Source: Burkholderiales bacterium
Lineage (GTDB): Bacteria > Pseudomonadota > Gammaproteobacteria > Burkholderiales > SG8-41
Direction of reading: 5' to 3'
Assembly (NCBI GenBank): GCA_035525455.1
Contig: DATLEF010000209.1
Span: forward strand, 1 to 63,984
DNA: 63,984 nt
In this document: in pieces, positions 46,080 through 53,063 of the stretch
How the letters are laid out: each line of letters begins with the position of its first letter
How positions within the stretch are numbered: the first letter of the stretch is position 1
Notes under the pieces: generated by a model
What the model was told of the DNA's origin: nothing
Seen by the model: the letters and a program-made list of their open reading frames with translations, nothing else
Databases searched by the model: none
Position numbers and translations under genes: made by a program

Positions 46080-46174
46080 TGGCGGAAGAGAGTGGGAGTC
46101 GAACCCACGCAGGACCGCCTGCGGCCCCTACCGGGTTTGAAGTCCGGCCGCCCCACCGGGAGCGATTCCCTTCC
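46080..46174 (-). tRNA. selC: tRNA-Sec (anticodon UCA), CCA encoded
   Basis: The reverse complement is GGAAGGGAATCGCTCCCGGTGGGGCGGCCGGACTTCAAACCCGGTAGGGGCCGCAGGCGGTCCTGCGTGGGTTCGACTCCCACTCTCTTCCGCCA (95 nt). It has an 8-bp acceptor stem and a long variable arm, and is nearly collinear with E. coli selC. Confidence 0.95.
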
Positions 46175-46237: not shown

Positions 46238-46423
46238 CTAGCCGAGCTGTTTGTTCGGCTCGGCTCGAGCAACCACGCTGTTGTATTGCCGCACGAACTG
46301 AAGGGCTACGGCAGCTGCGCGTTTGTCTCCGTTCGTGAAAGCGGTTGCGTATTGCTGGAGCCAGTAATCCCTGCGGCCGTCCTGAGACCCTGCTTGTATG
46401 TTGCTGCTTGTGTTCTCAGCCAT
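46238..46423 (-). CDS. Hypothetical 61-aa protein between the TrxR-like gene and selC
   Basis: ATG preceded by an AAGGGGGA Shine-Dalgarno. No recognisable motif. Same orientation as the sel genes. Confidence 0.45.
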   Translation of the reverse strand: MAENTSSNIQAGSQDGRRDYWLQQYATAFTNGDKRAAAVALQFVRQYNSVVARAEPNKQLG

Positions 46424-46506: not shown

Positions 46507-47412
46507 CTATATGAGCGCTTGTTGCAGCGCGGCAGCCGCCCGTCGTGCGTCATCGAGCGCAGCGCCCAAAGTGCCGCCGAACTGGCTGCGCACGGCGCCG
46601 ATCGCGGAGACTCCCGCGACGTTCGTCTGCAACGCATCATTAACGCGCAGGAAACGGTTCGCATCGCGCTCGACATCATTCGCCAGAAATTCCACGTTGG
46701 GCTCGAGACCGATGTAGGCGAAAACACCTGCGCACGGCAGGTCCTCGGTGCGGCCGTCGGCGTGTTTCAACTGGGCCTTCTCGACCATTTTGGAGCCGTC
46801 GATCGCCTGAACGGTTGCATTCCAGATAACCCGAATCTTGTCGTTGGTTCGCACCTGGTCGGCAAAATGCGGTGTGCCGGTGAATGTATCTCGGCGATGT
46901 ACCAGAGTCACCCGCCGACAGTACTGCGCGAGCACCAGCGCTTCCTGCAGTGCCGAGTCTCCACCGCCGACCACGATGACTTCTTCGTTCTGATACATGG
47001 GCCCGTCGCAATCGGCACACTGGGAAACGCCGCGGCCCTCGTATTCCGCTTCGCCGGGAACGCCCAGCTTTTTCAAGCGTGCGCCGGAGGCGACGATGAC
47101 GCAGCGGGCGCGATACGACCCGGACGCGGTCACGATCTCTTTTTGATCACCGTTATTGCGTACGAGCGTCACCGGCTCCTGAATGCTCGTGACACCCGCT
47201 TCGGCGTTCGCCTGCATCATTCCTGCAGCGAGCTCGGCACCCGATGTCGGCTGGCCTGCGGGAACCGGATCGAGCTCGTTCACATTGATGACGAGGCCCC
47301 CGAAGAGCTGTCCTTCGATCGTTGCGACTTTGAGTCCGGCCTGGGCGAGCATGCCGGCGGCGCTGAGCCCGCTCACGCCCTCGCCGATCACGATTACGTC
47401 ATGAATAGACAC
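46507..47412 (-). CDS. Thioredoxin-reductase-like FAD/NAD(P)H disulfide oxidoreductase
   Basis: DVIVIGEGVSGLSAA (FAD), redox-active CADC (compare TrxB CATC), VVGGGDSALQEA and HRRD (NADPH). It starts 12 nt after the selB stop. Confidence 0.85.
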   Translation of the reverse strand: MSIHDVIVIGEGVSGLSAAGMLAQAGLKVATIEGQLFGGLVINVNELDPVPAGQPTSGAELAAGMMQANAEAGVTSIQEPVTLVRNNGDQKEIVTASGSYRARCVIVASGARLKKLGVPGEAEYEGRGVSQCADCDGPMYQNEEVIVVGGGDSALQEALVLAQYCRRVTLVHRRDTFTGTPHFADQVRTNDKIRVIWNATVQAIDGSKMVEKAQLKHADGRTEDLPCAGVFAYIGLEPNVEFLANDVERDANRFLRVNDALQTNVAGVSAIGAVRSQFGGTLGAALDDARRAAAALQQALI

Positions 47413-47424
47413 GTGCGTATCCCT

Positions 47425-49425
47425 TTATCGTCGGTATGTTTGAAGCGGCCGCCGCGGAGGTCCCGTGGGCTTGGCCTGTGCTTTTGCGGGCGGCCGCTGG
47501 ACTGGGCTCGCTGCACCCAGTATCGGCACAAAATCCTTCCGCATCTTGCGCGCATCGCCAAGGCGCTGAGTAATGCCGAGCGTGTCCAGAAATTCGAGGA
47601 TCTCGATCGCGAGGCTGCGTCCAACTCCGGTCGCATCACGGTATTGGGCTGCAGTGAATTGCCCGTTCGGCTGCCCCTGCGCCGTAGCCTGAGCGATCGC
47701 CGCGAGTGTCGCCAGCGTAGACCGCGTGTAGAAGCGATCGGCCGTGACCTTGAGCACTTCGCCGCTCTTCGCTTTGCGATGAAGAAAATCCTTGACGATG
47801 CCTTCCTTCAATTTGACCTGCAGCGCAAGCTCGCGCAGCGGCGGCGAGTTGAAACCGGCGCTTTCGAGCGCCGGCCGAACAGTCTGCCACATTCGATCGT
47901 CCGCGGCGTTCGCCGTCGCGTCGTGGCCCGCGATGCGCGCGGTCGAGCCGCTCGCCTCTATTTTGCGCTCGTCCGTGAGACGTCTCAGAAACGAGCCGAA
48001 CATGTCAGCGCTCAGGTCCGGCGCAACCGATCTGCGCAGCGTTTCCACTTCCTGCCCCACTGCCTGTGGGTGCTCGCTGTGGAAGCGCAGGAGCTCCGCA
48101 ACGATGGCTTCCTGTAATGCCTGGTAATGTCCGCGTGTGACAGCGACCCGCGCATCTTTGCCTAACTGCACGAGCTCCGCATTCGCGTAGAGTTGCGTTG
48201 CACGCTCCCGCGTCAGGTTGTACACCACCTCGAAACGCCGCAGATCGATCACGCGCTCGCCGGTGCGCAGCAATTCGGACAGCGCGGTCTCGGGCGCGTC
48301 GTGCTCGAGCGCTGCGAGCTCGACCTTGCGCGCTGGGGACGTGCGGCGCGTCGCCGGAGCGAATGGGTCGAGGACGAAGCCGCCGCCTATGGTGCGCGTG
48401 GCTGACTGGTCGCGCAGAATGAACCGATCACCTCGCAGTGCGCAAATCGGCTGATCGAGCACGAGCTGGGCCACCGCCCCAGTACCCGGCTCAAGCGCTG
48501 TCCCTTGCCGGGTGGCGATACGCGCGGTTACATCACTGGTTGCAAGATGCAAATGGACCGGCGTCCAATGCTCGAGCGCACGAGCTTCGGCGCCCAATAC
48601 CGTCACGCGAGCGTCGAGGCGTCGAGTCGGGCGATGGAGCTCAGGCGCGACAACCCAATCCCCGCGATGCACGGCTTCGAGACCGGCGCCCGTCAGATTG
48701 AGCGCGCAGCGTTCACCCGCTGATGCGCCCTGTGCAACGTCGCCCTTGATCTGTATGCCCCGCACACGCACTTCCTGCCCCGCCGGCGAGACGACGAGCT
48801 TGTCGCCCACCTTCACGACTCCGTTGAAAACCGTGCCGGTAACCACCGTGCCGCTGCCGGCCACACTGAACGTGCGGTCGACTGCGTATCTGAAATTCTG
48901 GCCCGCGGATAGCCGGGCCGAATGCTGCATCGCTTCCGCAATAAGAAGCTCGCGAAGCTCCGTCATTCCGGATCCGGTGACAGCCGAAACCGCTATCACC
49001 GGCACATGCGCGAGCTGGGTGCTCTGAACGAGCGCGGCGACCTGCTGCTCGACTTCGCGAACACGATCGCTGTCAACGCGATCGGTTTTGGTAATGACTG
49101 CCACGCCGCGATTCACGTGCAGCAGATCGAGGATATGCAGGTGCTCTATCGTTTGCGGCATGATGCCATCGTCCGCTGCCACGACGAGCAACGAGAAATC
49201 GATGCCGCATACGCCTGCCAGCATGTTGCGTATGAAGCGTTCGTGGCCCGGAACGTCAACGAAACCGATCAGCTTGCCGTCAGGCAGCGGCAGATACGCA
49301 AAACCCAGGTCGATCGAGATGCCGCGCGCTTTCTCTTCCGGCAGACGGTCGGTGTCGACGCCGGTCAATGTCTTCACGAGCAACGTCTTGCCGTGATCGA
49401 TATGGCCTGCAGTCGCGACGATCAT
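47425..49425 (-). CDS. selB: Selenocysteine-specific translation elongation factor SelB
   Basis: MIVATAGHIDHGKTLLVKTLTGVDTDRLPEEKARGISIDLGF...DVPGHERF and a long winged-helix C-terminal extension. 666 aa. Confidence 0.93.
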   Translation of the reverse strand: MIVATAGHIDHGKTLLVKTLTGVDTDRLPEEKARGISIDLGFAYLPLPDGKLIGFVDVPGHERFIRNMLAGVCGIDFSLLVVAADDGIMPQTIEHLHILDLLHVNRGVAVITKTDRVDSDRVREVEQQVAALVQSTQLAHVPVIAVSAVTGSGMTELRELLIAEAMQHSARLSAGQNFRYAVDRTFSVAGSGTVVTGTVFNGVVKVGDKLVVSPAGQEVRVRGIQIKGDVAQGASAGERCALNLTGAGLEAVHRGDWVVAPELHRPTRRLDARVTVLGAEARALEHWTPVHLHLATSDVTARIATRQGTALEPGTGAVAQLVLDQPICALRGDRFILRDQSATRTIGGGFVLDPFAPATRRTSPARKVELAALEHDAPETALSELLRTGERVIDLRRFEVVYNLTRERATQLYANAELVQLGKDARVAVTRGHYQALQEAIVAELLRFHSEHPQAVGQEVETLRRSVAPDLSADMFGSFLRRLTDERKIEASGSTARIAGHDATANAADDRMWQTVRPALESAGFNSPPLRELALQVKLKEGIVKDFLHRKAKSGEVLKVTADRFYTRSTLATLAAIAQATAQGQPNGQFTAAQYRDATGVGRSLAIEILEFLDTLGITQRLGDARKMRKDFVPILGAASPVQRPPAKAQAKPTGPPRRPLQTYRR

Positions 49426-50831
49426 CGACTGAAATCCAGGTTACCGAGCTGGGCGACGAAACCGTGCTCGTCGTCGAGGCAGCGCAGGTCCATCAGAAAA
49501 GCGCCGTCTTTGATGCGGCCGATGACGGGCACGGGCAAAGCACGAAACGCTTTAGCGATGATCTGCACGGCGGACGTTTTGTTTTTTCCCGTACTGACGA
49601 TCGCGATTCCGGCGCTGGGCAGCGATTCGACCGGCAGCGAGCCGCTTCCGATCTGGCTCGCGCACTGAATGACCGTAGCGCTCGCTTTGCCATTGAGGAC
49701 GGCAAGGATGCGCGGCAAGAGGCGCGCAGCAAGCGCTTCCAATTCAGCGACTGGACGCGTGAGTGCGGACATTATGGGCAATTCGTCTTTCAGCCGCTGC
49801 GGGTTGGCATAAAGCTGCAATACGGATTCCAGAGCAGCCAACGTCATCTTGTCGACTCTCAGCGCGCGTTTCATCGGGTTCTTCTTGATGCGCTGGATCA
49901 GATCTTTGCGGCCGACGATGAGACCCGCCTGCGGGCCGCCGAGAAGCTTATCGCCGCTGAACGTAACGATGTGGGCGCCCTGCGCGAGCGCTTCGCGCGG
50001 CGTAGGTTCGTGAGGCAGGCCGTATTCTTCCAGATCGACGAGCGTGCCACTTCCCAGATCGACGATGAAGGGCAGCTCGTGTTTGCGCGCAAGGGCTGCG
50101 AGATCCGCTTCGGAAACGGCCGCAGTAAAGCCCTGGATCGCATAGTTGCTCGTGTGCACCTTCATGATGGCTGCGACGCGCGGCCCGATGGCGTCGGCAT
50201 AATCCCTGGGGTGCGTGCGATTCGTTGTGCCAACTTCGTGAAGCTTGCAGCCCGCGCGCGACATGATGTCGGGAATGCGAAACGCGCCTCCAATTTCGAT
50301 CAACTCTCCGCGCGAGACGAGGACTTCCTTTTTCGCCGCAAGCGTATTCAACACGAGATATACGGCCGCCGCGTTGTTGTTGACCACTACGGCGCTCTCG
50401 GCACCGGTCAGTCTCGTCAGCCAACGCTCGACGTGCTGATCGCGTTCGCCGCGAGCGGCGCCGTCGAGATCGAATTCGAGGTTAACCGGACGCGTCATCG
50501 CCTGCACGACGGCGTCGGCGGCGCAGCGCGGCATGACCGCGCGCCCGAGATTGGTATGCAGCACCGTGCCGCTGAGATTGAAAACAGGCTTCAGTGACGG
50601 TTGGGCGTCCTGGATCAGCTGTGTTGCACAACGTTCAATGAACGCGGCTTCGTTGAAGCTCCAATCGGCTCGTTCGCCGAGTGCAGCGCGCTCGCGATCG
50701 AGCTGCGTGCGCAAAGCGTCGACTACGAGCGGCCTGCCATAGCGCGAGACTAAAGTCGCGACGCGCCTGTCGTTGAGAAGCCGATCGACCGCTGGAAGCG
50801 CGCGACGCGCGGCCGCAGCCGTGTTCAGCAC
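49422..50831 (-). CDS. selA: L-seryl-tRNA(Sec) selenium transferase SelA
   Basis: GTG start. NLSGTVLHTNLGRA, GELIEIGGAFRIPDIM, KVHTSNY and FSGDKLLGGPQAG (PLP lysine). ATGA overlap with selB. Confidence 0.93.
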   Translation of the reverse strand: MLNTAAAARRALPAVDRLLNDRRVATLVSRYGRPLVVDALRTQLDRERAALGERADWSFNEAAFIERCATQLIQDAQPSLKPVFNLSGTVLHTNLGRAVMPRCAADAVVQAMTRPVNLEFDLDGAARGERDQHVERWLTRLTGAESAVVVNNNAAAVYLVLNTLAAKKEVLVSRGELIEIGGAFRIPDIMSRAGCKLHEVGTTNRTHPRDYADAIGPRVAAIMKVHTSNYAIQGFTAAVSEADLAALARKHELPFIVDLGSGTLVDLEEYGLPHEPTPREALAQGAHIVTFSGDKLLGGPQAGLIVGRKDLIQRIKKNPMKRALRVDKMTLAALESVLQLYANPQRLKDELPIMSALTRPVAELEALAARLLPRILAVLNGKASATVIQCASQIGSGSLPVESLPSAGIAIVSTGKNKTSAVQIIAKAFRALPVPVIGRIKDGAFLMDLRCLDDEHGFVAQLGNLDFSR

Positions 50832-51028: not shown

Positions 51029-51802
51029 TTACTCCCAAAGCCTTTCGGGCAGCGGCAGCCCCGCCAGATCCTGAGGCGTCGGGCGCCGCTCGGGCTGTAT
51101 GCCGTAGCGCTCCAATACGGCGGCGAGTTGGCGCGCGTGCTGCGCGGAATGCCACGTCGAGCGCTCCAGGAGCTGATGCATCGGCTGAGGTCCGTAGAAC
51201 GTGGGGGCGTTCTGCGTGCAGGATTTGTCCGCGAGCTGCGACCACCATGTTTCGAGGCGGGCGATGACCTGATCGCCGTAGTCCGCGACATGCTTACCCG
51301 TCGTAAAGGTGCCTTCGGCGGGCGGTACATTGGCGTGCTGGACCGCGTACACCACGTTATCGTTTACCGTCTCGAGAAACGCTTCGCCGATGCGGAAAAC
51401 ATGATGCGCGAGCAGCCGTAGGGCGCGATCGCGATTGGGAATCACGCGGTCGCTCATCTTGTCGTCTGGAATCTGACGTATCAGGCTTTGCGCGATACGC
51501 AGGACGTTGGTCCATTTGGCAATGAGCTCGTGCGGCGGTAACGGTGTGTGCCCCGTGCCCTGGAGGCCGACGAACTCGGCAACATCTTCGAGATTCTGTC
51601 CGAAGACGAATTGCCCGCCCTTCGATACGACCGGCACGTTACGCACGCCGAGCTTGAGCAAACGCTCGCGGCCGCCGGCATCGTTCAGCACGTCGACTGC
51701 GTCAAACTCGATGCCTTTGCGCGAAAGAAACTCTTTCGCCCGTAGACAGCTGCTTCAGCCGGGCTGTGTAAAGAGAACGAATCTGTCTGCGACGGTGTTC
51801 AT
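51029..51802 (-). CDS. Candidate selenoprotein: glutaredoxin-like (U-S-S-C) domain fused to a DinB-like domain; in-frame TGA (Sec) at 51755-51757
   Basis: Track ORFs 51755..52000(-) and 51029..51691(-) share a frame and are separated only by the TGA. Read-through gives MNTVADRFVLFTQPG-U-SSCLRAKEFLSRKGIEFDAVDVLNDAGGRERLLKLGVRNVPVV..., a complete Grx/NrdH fold. The C-terminus has DinB-like His residues. The sel genes are adjacent. The start could also be ATG 51820. Confidence 0.75.
51721..51739 (-). promoter_or_regulatory. Candidate bacterial SECIS hairpin
   Basis: The mRNA reads UGA + 15 nt, then GCGAAAG AGUUU CUUUCGC (7-bp stem). The apical loop contains G-U, about 24 nt after the UGA. Confidence 0.5.
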
Positions 51803-51911: not shown

Positions 51912-53063
51912 TTACTGATTCGGCTCAGCGCGAGTGCCCGCGGGACATCCGCTTTGCGACGCGGCAGCGTGATCCTTTTGCGCGGATTCGATGATCCCAC
52001 CGCCGAGACATACCCGGCTTTCGTAAATCACGACCGACTGCCCGGGTGTCACCGCCCACTGTGCCTCTGCGAAGTCCACGACACAGTGCTCGCTATTCAC
52101 GTCCACTATCGTACAAGGCGCATCCTTCTGGCGGTATCGCGTTTTCGCTCCGTACACCCATTGGCAATGGGGAACAGTTCCGGCGATCCAGTTCAGCCGC
52201 ACTGCGCTCACCTGGAGTGAATACAACGCGCGGCTCTCGCGTCCCTGTACCACGACGAGGCGATTGCGCTTCATGTCTTTGTCGACGACGTACCAGGCAT
52301 CGCCGTCGCCGTCGCGCTGCCCGCCGATGCGAAGGCCCTGGCGCTGGCCCAAGGTATAAAACATTAGGCCCATGTGCTCGCCGACGATGCGTCCATCCAG
52401 GGTGTAGATCTCGCCCGGATTGGCAGGCAGATAGCGGTTCAGAAATTCCCGAAACGGCCGCTCACCTATGAAACAGATTCCCGTGGAATCGCGCTTGTCG
52501 TGATTCGGCAGCCCTTCTCGCCGTGCGATATCGCGTACCTCACGCTTGTACAGGCCACCCAGCGGAAAGAGCGTCTTCGAAAGCTGCCGCTGGTCGAGCC
52601 GATACAGAAAATAGGTTTGATCCTTCGATCCGTCTTCGGCCTTGACGAGCTGATACAGACCGTCCACTTCACGAACGTGCGCATAATGACCGGTCGCGAT
52701 GTAGTCCGCGCCCAGCGTCAGCGCGTGATTGAGGAATGCGCGAAATTTGATTTCCGCGTTGCACAGCACGTCCGGATTCGGCGTGCGTCCGGCACGATAC
52801 TCGGACAGGAATTCGCTGAACACGCGCTCTTTGTATTCGGCCGAAAAATTGACGGCGTCGATTTCGATGCCGATGCGGTCGGCGACGGCAACAGCGTCCA
52901 CGAGGTCCTGTCGCGAGCTGCAATACTCGTCGTTGTCGTCGTCTTCCCAGTTCTTCATGAAAAGACCGACGACCTCGTGCCCCTGCTGCTTGAGCAGCAG
53001 CGCTGCGACCGCCGAGTCGACACCGCCCGAGAGGCCCACGACGATACGTTTTCTTGCCGGCAT
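51912..53063 (-). CDS. mnmA: tRNA 2-thiouridine(34) synthase MnmA
   Basis: [18 protein letters not shown] (PP-loop), [16 protein letters not shown] and TGHYA motifs. Confidence 0.94.

Follow-up and report, generated by a model that had tools for sequence, protein, structure and literature searches.

Dedicated paralogues of thioredoxin reductase (TrxR) have been described in several bacterial systems. In the clostridial glycine-reductase (grd) operon, trxA3 and trxB3 are needed for the reduction of GrdA, and TrxB3, a TrxB paralogue encoded in one operon with selenoprotein genes, is held to be dedicated, with TrxA3, to re-reducing it, which provides a precedent for a selenoprotein-dedicated TrxB (PMC10880999). 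In Clostridium pasteurianum, the gene of the YruB-class, glutaredoxin-like redoxin Cp9 lies between the TrxR-like gene cp34 and a peroxiredoxin gene, and Cp34 reduces Cp9, a free cysteine-containing redoxin of 75–80 aa that feeds the peroxiredoxin Cp20 (PMC3720550). AhpF carries a TrxR-like C-terminal module with a CxxC centre and has one dedicated partner. Here we describe a gene for a TrxR-like flavoprotein of 301 aa with a CADC redox centre, hereafter TrxRL, located at positions 46507–47412 on the minus strand of a 63,984-nucleotide (nt) stretch from a Burkholderiales bacterium (contig DATLEF010000209.1 of assembly GCA_035525455.1; this whole stretch is called the window). The gene lies between selB and selC, in an operon for selenocysteine (Sec) decoding.

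TrxRL shares with canonical TrxB (TIGR01292; E. coli 1tde and 1f6m) the fold, the length class, the motifs for flavin adenine dinucleotide (FAD) and NAD(P)H, and a CxxC centre at the homologous position of the NADPH domain. It differs by CADC in place of CATC, DGPM in place of DGFF, GEGVxGL in place of GSGPAGY, G-A in place of G-D, a deletion of 5 residues, and the location of its gene within a sel operon. In the grd system a separate atypical thioredoxin, TrxA3, acts as mediator, whereas the cluster described here contains no stand-alone redoxin gene, and its sole thioredoxin (Trx)-fold module is the glutaredoxin (Grx)-like head of the selenoprotein itself; moreover, the operon serves Sec decoding instead of catabolism, and its hosts are aerobic-type Burkholderiales instead of Clostridia. 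Unlike Cp9, the Grx module here is a Sec-containing one joined to a DinB domain; the cluster lacks a peroxiredoxin gene, and the pairing with the reductase is a candidate one. The model for AhpF (TIGR03140) was the third-best NCBIfam match of TrxRL (167.3 bits, cut-off 502.9, profile positions 213–488), but AhpF has about 520 aa and an N-terminal double Trx-fold domain; the size of 301 aa, the lack of that tandem domain and the score far below the cut-off rule out that TrxRL is an AhpF. In classical proteobacterial sel clusters (selAB and selC, often next to fdh), selA and selB likewise overlap, with selC and a selenoprotein gene nearby. The present cluster differs from them by an extra flavoprotein gene between selB and selC, and by a linked selenoprotein that is a Grx-DinB fusion and not a formate dehydrogenase; no Sec-containing formate dehydrogenase was found in the source assembly. 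Our coverage of the literature was incomplete and does not prove absence; within it, we found no sel operon described as containing a TrxR-like gene. By analogy, TrxRL appears to resemble the dedicated paralogues TrxB3, Cp34 and AhpF, from which it is set apart by its clade, by the stretch around its active site and by a gene placed between selB and selC.

The re-reduction of bacterial U-x-x-C selenoproteins has hardly been characterized, numerous as these proteins are in metagenomes. In non-marine aquatic samples, one of the most abundant selenoprotein families is that of the UGSC-containing proteins, predicted U-x-x-C selenoproteins of unknown function (PMC2398784).

Motifs and phylogenetic placement of TrxRL

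The first-pass annotation of the window had attributed the architecture of a low-molecular-weight (low-Mr) TrxR to the 301-aa product, and this attribution was borne out. The open reading frame (ORF) runs over 301 codons of the minus strand from a GTG start to a TAG stop, and all four motifs named in that annotation are present: the GxGxxG site for FAD (G10-E-G12-V-S-G15), the redox centre C132-A-D-C135, a second dinucleotide motif of the GGGxxA type for NAD(P)H (G149-G-G-D-S-A154), and HRRD (H172-R-R-D175). TrxRL matched the Pfam family Pyr_redox_2 (PF07992) with 134.5 bits (cut-off 26.1), and its best NCBIfam model was TIGR01292 (TRX_reduct), at 245.8 bits and under the cut-off of 343.45. 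Residues 3–297 aligned end to end with low-Mr TrxRs (5uwy, E 3.8e-55); other solved enzymes matched were the Lactococcus-type 5mh4 (E 1e-52) and E. coli 1tde (E 2e-32). The CADC centre aligned with the CAVC or CATC of the solved TrxRs and of canonical TrxB, at the position of C135 and C138 in E. coli, and the 301-aa protein has no C-terminal interface domain.

Comparison of 31 sequences showed that C132, A133, C135, D136, G137 and G149–G151 are invariant; D134 was kept in the 29 clade members among them, and the catalytic motifs were retained over 42–100% identity. HRRD, however, did not stand as a family feature, for it is confined to the genus of the window genome, while other orthologues have HRG, and those of family f7 MRG or LRG. 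A departure beyond what had been annotated concerns the C-terminal FAD-binding G-D motif. TrxRL has A-I-G-A-V-R where canonical TrxB has AAGDV, and the 5-residue stretch before the G-A is missing; the G-A for G-D exchange runs through nearly the whole clade. Thus, two of the three features of the low-Mr TrxR family, the dinucleotide motifs and CxxC, were found in TrxRL, with the G-D motif as the exception.

The source genome is a metagenome-assembled genome (MAG) with a completeness of 83%, whose 219 contigs sum to 3.05 Mb. All genomes compared here are MAGs, and kinship among them inflates the counts. The annotation had called for a search for a canonical trxB elsewhere in the genome. None with a TIGR01292 match over the cut-off was found in the 83%-complete source MAG, in which the top match (254.6 bits) was a second paralogue on contig C23; in contrast, canonical TrxB (344–394 bits) was present in 28 of 31 related genomes, beside paralogues of the 200–260-bit class, a count that takes in 10 of the 12 genomes from the same genus. 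From these frequencies among relatives, the canonical gene of the source MAG most likely sits in its unassembled part. We rejected the possibility that TrxRL is the only TrxB of its genome, given the 83% completeness and the 10 of 12 same-genus genomes that have canonical TrxB as well.

Identity between TrxRL and the canonical TrxB proteins of relatives was 29–33%. When 49 sequences were placed in a maximum-likelihood tree, a branch with 100/100 support split the TrxRL clade (39 sequences) from the canonical side, where canonical TrxB (100/99) grouped with other CATC enzymes. The clade, which we call CA[D/H]C, is recognized by GEG[VI]xGL for GSGPAGY, VSQCA[D/H]CDGPM for VS[AG]CATCDGFF (VSQCADCDGPM in TrxRL), GGGDSALQEA for GGGNTAVEEA, the loss of 5 residues, and A-[AIV]-G-A-V-R at the site of the A-A-G-D-V shared by all canonical enzymes, the Gly-Ala being nearly universal. 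TrxRL is, as judged by score, identity and clade, a specialised low-Mr TrxR paralogue and not a housekeeping TrxB, in agreement with the paralogue status given to it at first pass. The finding that had been named as refuting a dedicated role, a sole housekeeping trxB that clusters with canonical TrxB, was not what we obtained: TrxRL falls in a separate clade, and relatives hold both types.

The selB junction and its conservation

On the minus strand of the window the genes follow in the order mnmA, Sec-Grx-DinB, selA, selB, TrxRL and tRNA-Sec. The selB gene, for the Sec-specific elongation factor (47425–49425, minus strand; 666 aa), matched TIGR00475 with 465.1 bits (cut-off 242.25) as well as the Pfam SelB domains, and it overlaps by 4 nt with selA, for selenocysteine synthase (49422–50831, minus strand; 469 aa; TIGR00474, 587.6 bits). 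The TAA stop of selB at 47427–47425 is followed by a 12-nt spacer, AGGGATACGCAC (47413–47424, minus strand), which contains a Shine-Dalgarno-like AGGGA, and then by the GTG of TrxRL at 47412. Scans with consensus sequences found no terminator-like or promoter-like site between the two genes. The close coupling of TrxRL to selB, stated in the first-pass annotation, was thus confirmed. TrxRL is predicted to be co-transcribed with selA-selB and selC, and is probably also coupled in translation with selA-selB.

At the downstream end of the cluster lies selC, the gene of tRNA-Sec with anticodon UCA (46080–46174, minus strand; ARAGORN). At the other end are the gene of the Sec-Grx-DinB selenoprotein (51029–51802, minus strand) and its conserved upstream neighbour mnmA, for tRNA 2-thiouridine synthase (51912–53063, minus strand; NF001138, 463.3 bits). 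An ORF of 61 aa (46238–46423, minus strand) sits between TrxRL and tRNA-Sec. It probably does not belong to the conserved module, since the spacing between TrxRL and selC varies from <100 to ~2,500 nt in relatives, and was discarded as a member.

The arrangement is conserved. Among 150 genomes of family f1, to which the window genome belongs, a TrxRL orthologue of at least 47% identity was present in about 130 and selB in 130. In about 30 f1 pairs compared by coordinates, the reductase gene lies directly 3' of selB on the same strand. Loci mapped by tblastn have the order mnmA, Sec-Grx-DinB, an interval of ~0.05–8 kb, selA, selB, TrxRL and selC throughout f1, and the same order in family f7, where TrxRL is only 43–46% identical to that of the window; the distance from TrxRL to selC in these f1 and f7 loci was <100 to ~2,500 nt. 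The genome G226 of family f14 has selA-selB-TrxRL-selC. Adjacency of selB and TrxRL on the same strand was seen at every locus with enough flank in f1 and f7, and in G226. Across 60 distinct loci, selB ended a median of 13 nt before TrxRL began, with ≤42 nt in 52 of these loci. While the outer spacers of the selA-selB-TrxRL core vary freely, the selB-TrxRL junction does not. Downstream of TrxRL, selC is found in most related loci, and mnmA adjoins Grx-DinB in nearly all. The order selA-selB-TrxRL-selC is therefore conserved across three families of Burkholderiales. In genomes G259 and G300 the TrxRL orthologue is not beside selB.

The phyletic pattern was assessed in a sample of 301 genomes of the order, with E≤1e-60 as the threshold for the CADC clade, which probably misses some members in family f16, where some scores lie at the threshold. 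In this sample, selB was found in 80 genomes, the CADC clade in 18, and Grx-DinB, in Sec or Cys form, in 36. All 18 clade-positive genomes have selB, and 16 have Grx-DinB; since they are related (five families), no formal statistic is given. The clade occurred only in Sec-decoding genomes of the sample, repeatedly in the sel operon or overlapping a selenoprotein gene.

Several loci depart from the common pattern in other ways. At locus L089 (12041–13945 and 17760–18599), ~3.7 kb separate selB from the TrxR-like gene, the sole such locus seen. MAG G135 (L046 and L049) contains two separate clusters of selB, TrxRL and tRNA-Sec, whose reductases share 51% and 45% identity with that of the window, which reflects either a genuine duplication or a mixed bin. 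Loci L009, L104, L107, L120, L126 and L143 carry an island of the Burkholderiales type under the labels 'uncultured Streptomycetaceae' or 'Bordetella parapertussis', which are probably taxonomic mislabels of MAGs.

Candidate substrates and competing explanations

The selenoprotein at the start of the cluster has its Sec in a U16-S-S-C centre, encoded by the TGA at 51757–51755. Its read-through translation matched PF00462 with 51.4 bits and DinB_2 with 22.8 bits, the latter slightly below the cut-off. The best NCBIfam matches of the Grx head were the YruB model (TIGR02196, the top match) and the Uxx-star and NrdH redoxin models. NrdH takes electrons from thioredoxin reductase (PMC3190916), and members of the YruB/Cp9 and NrdH classes are reduced by TrxR-type enzymes and not by glutathione (PMC3720550, PMC3190916). 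Sec-Grx-DinB was found in 139 of the 151 genomes searched, with the TGA kept in all among the matches listed; unless it sits on a separate contig, its gene lies upstream of selA at a distance of ~0.05–8 kb. Two points make Grx-DinB a good candidate substrate of TrxRL: the f1 and f7 clusters have it as their selenoprotein, and its Grx head best matches YruB/Cp9, Uxx-star and NrdH.

A second candidate emerged from the sister paralogue of TrxRL in the source genome, which has a CAHC centre and is encoded at C23:24454–25383 (= L166:6455–7384). Its gene overlaps the stop codon of the upstream gene (C23:22713–24470 = L166:4714–6471, plus strand), in which, as called, only the C-terminal 70 positions of PF24696 (UGSC) were matched. 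When read through the TGA at C23:23034, it encodes a 585-aa protein with G-C-U-G-S-C that matches the whole UGSC profile (positions 3–171/172) with 97.1 bits (cut-off 25), and also NF041046, "UGSC family (seleno)protein", below the cut-off of that model. The pair of UGSC and TrxRL-like genes recurs in family f7 at 74% identity, with the TGA retained. Relatives of the UGSC fusion have C-*-G-S-C in 77 of 79 loci, and in 18 of the 72 loci whose downstream flank extends to 1 kb or more a TrxR-like gene follows directly; five of these 18 are on megabase-scale contigs labelled Dehalococcoidia, with CAWC, CSWC or CASC reductases. This pairing shifts the interpretation beyond Grx-DinB alone more strongly than any other result.

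Because TrxRL has the make-up of a complete TrxR-type enzyme, and its clade is found, in the sample, only in Sec-decoding genomes and sits beside sel or U-x-x-C genes, recycling of selenoproteins would be its most economical role. We therefore propose, tentatively but as a serious possibility, that TrxRL is an NAD(P)H-dependent reductase that recycles the U-x-x-C selenoproteins of its lineage, Grx-DinB included. We infer its cofactor use, substrates and direction of electron flow from what was observed of its family, motifs, paralogue status, operon position and association with Sec genes. NAD(P)H would reduce the FAD, which would reduce the C132-A-D-C135 disulfide, and the resulting dithiol would reduce the selenenylsulfide (Se-S) centre of U-x-x-C selenoproteins. 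As prime candidate substrate we see the Grx-like head of Sec-Grx-DinB, whose gene opens this cluster; the abundant selenoproteins of the UGSC family would be equally possible. Placement of the gene inside the Sec-decoding operon would ensure that the reductase is synthesized whenever selenoproteins are made. With somewhat greater reserve, we consider it possible that the whole CA[D/H]C clade consists of previously unrecognised NAD(P)H:selenenylsulfide reductases serving Sec-Grx-DinB and UGSC/'domain X' proteins (the latter domain is described below), one copy of which resides in the selA-selB-selC operon. If so, the locus would be a self-contained 'make, decode and recycle' selenoprotein island, and would offer the first biochemical handle on the UGSC family, which is abundant in freshwater metagenomes.

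Several observations weigh against this proposal. The Asp-to-Ala exchange in the 'GD' motif means that flavin binding by TrxRL is only predicted. The gene tightly linked to TrxRL is selB and not Grx-DinB, which is found 0.05–8 kb off or on a different contig. A tight Grx-DinB-selA-selB-selC operon without a reductase occurs in family f16, family f18 has Grx-DinB-selB without one, and a Rubrivivax MAG (L140) has Grx-DinB beside selB, selA and selC, again with no reductase. Four genomes with Sec-Grx-DinB, reached via their Grx-DinB loci and labelled delta proteobacterium (two), Acidiferrales and Rubrivivax, hold only TrxRs of the CATC or CASC type, at 33–37% identity, and no CADC-clade reductase. 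No reductase adjoins 54 of the 72 UGSC-fusion loci. The coupling of the f16 clade member to a SufS/CsdA-like gene is more in keeping with a role in mobilising selenium or sulfur. Finally, the clade is missing from 62 of the 80 selB-positive genomes of the order sample, which shows that TrxRL is not needed for Sec decoding as such.

The first-pass annotation had proposed TrxRL as a reductase dedicated to Grx-DinB, and this idea held in part. The shared conserved cluster, the co-occurrence in 16 of 18 genomes and the coupling of the sister paralogue to another U-x-x-C selenoprotein support TrxRL as a candidate donor, but exclusive dedication fits poorly with selB as the invariant neighbour and with the occurrence of each protein without the other. 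Of the 36 genomes with Grx-DinB, about half lack a clade member at E≤1e-60, a count in which some f16 scores lie at the threshold. Conversely, Grx-DinB was not found in the TrxRL-bearing genomes G226 (98% complete) and G300 (93% complete). The source genome contains at least eight other U-x-x-C selenoprotein genes as equally possible substrates.

Some of the same evidence would suit a role in selenium supply, in which TrxRL would provide SelD with selenide made from selenite, selenodiglutathione or enzyme-bound perselenide, and would feed SelA by this route. Thioredoxin systems reduce selenite and selenodiglutathione (GS-Se-SG), the invariant neighbours of TrxRL are genes for Sec biosynthesis and decoding and not a selenoprotein gene, and selB is present in all 18 clade-positive genomes of the order sample. 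The 4-nt overlap of the f16 clade member with a SufS/CsdA/selenocysteine-lyase-like gene points the same way, as does genome G449, where another kind of TrxR-like gene, with CAMC, precedes selB by 16 nt. We nevertheless regard this role as unlikely: selD is on another contig, with a rhodanese-domain neighbour and no reductase nearby, the 62 selB-positive genomes without the clade speak against it too, and the gene to which the sister paralogue is coupled encodes a selenoprotein and not a protein of selenium metabolism.

Recycling could also be confined to UGSC proteins, with Grx-DinB recycled by glutathione or the ordinary thioredoxin system. Most of the selenoproteome is encoded by UGSC-type genes (8 Sec copies in the source genome, 12 in genome G016), one of them is directly coupled to the sister paralogue, G226 and G300 have the reductase with UGSC genes nearby and no Grx-DinB found, and Grx-DinB is widespread without the clade. 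This restriction seems quite improbable to us, however, as the selenoprotein gene of the f1 and f7 clusters is Grx-DinB and not UGSC, Grx-DinB is present in 16 of the 18 clade-positive genomes, and its head is similar to TrxR-dependent redoxins. A still more conventional view takes TrxRL as an ordinary accessory TrxR for a conventional thioredoxin, placed in the sel operon by historical accident and with no selenium-specific role. All generic TrxR motifs are indeed present, the genome has four thioredoxin genes, no canonical TrxB was found in the 83%-complete assembly, and the G259 and G300 orthologues are not beside selB. Against this stand the position after selB, kept across 43–100% identity and three families with gaps mostly of 9–42 nt, the canonical TrxB found in 10 of 12 same-genus genomes as well, and the clade paralogues that repeatedly adjoin Sec genes. 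In addition, DGPM follows the CxxC in place of DGFF, a stretch that, in the E. coli TrxR-Trx complex, contacts thioredoxin in the canonical enzyme. An accessory TrxR of this kind is, in our judgement, very unlikely.

Other selenium-related genes in the source and related genomes

In the source MAG, an in-frame TGA is present in eight UGSC-domain genes (the motif being UGSC, and UGAC in one of them), and a further such gene (C213) has the Cys form. Besides the fusion described above, UGSC-type genes are located at C24:9636–11342, C173:16562–18100, C141:18510–20104, C77:12–1187, C66:6741–7244, C23:13382–13891 and C18:5329–5832; G016 gave 12 such matches. They were identified by family searches with stop counting, which replaced a scan for in-frame TGA based on GC content at third codon positions that had returned 317 mostly spurious candidates. 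In the gene calls inspected, the selenoprotein genes end prematurely at TGA, and the reductase is named merely "thioredoxin reductase (NADPH)"; the comparison thus exposed both kinds of annotation error.

UGSC genes are fused to, or adjoin, a gene of ~330–390 aa for what we call 'domain X', which forms the C-terminal part of the UGSC fusion (residues ~195–585 of P0124, about 390 aa) and has no sequence match in Pfam or the PDB. Paralogues of domain X recur beside TrxRL and sel genes (L047:11659–12624, L058:2186–4136, L166:7396–8220 and G226:C12:747085–747978). G300 has selB, selC, domain X and a Sec-type UGSC gene in succession on one strand, with the reductase ~4 kb away. In G226, UGSC and domain X are encoded ~3.5 kb ahead of selA; the read-through ORFs listed upstream of selA in this genome comprised only TctC and CoA-transferase genes and no selenoprotein. 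Both genomes with TrxRL and without Grx-DinB have UGSC selenoprotein genes beside sel or TrxRL genes.

The selD gene of the source genome (contig C124; L165:7891–8920, plus strand) has an in-frame TGA, and SelD is thus itself Sec-containing. It diverges from a gene for a 376-aa, SelU-like rhodanese-domain protein (L165:6739–7869, minus strand), with a Bcp-type peroxiredoxin gene alongside. The rhodanese-domain protein is probably tRNA 2-selenouridine synthase, whose gene beside selD may explain the presence of mnmA next to the sel cluster.

In family f16, a long-branch CADC member (L058:5934–6854, minus strand) overlaps by 4 nt with the upstream gene L058:6851–8134 (minus strand), and the same is seen at L059. 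The upstream gene encodes a class-V aminotransferase of the SufS/CsdA/selenocysteine-lyase kind (TIGR01979, 123 bits, under the cut-off). The CAMC gene of G449 (L156:3613–4650, minus strand) encodes 345 aa with a normal G-D motif and ends 16 nt upstream of selB (L156:1626–3596, minus strand), with no selA adjoining. G449 has its CADC-clade orthologue elsewhere (L157:8147–9022), and the CAMC gene looks like an independent, second joining of a TrxR-like gene to selB.

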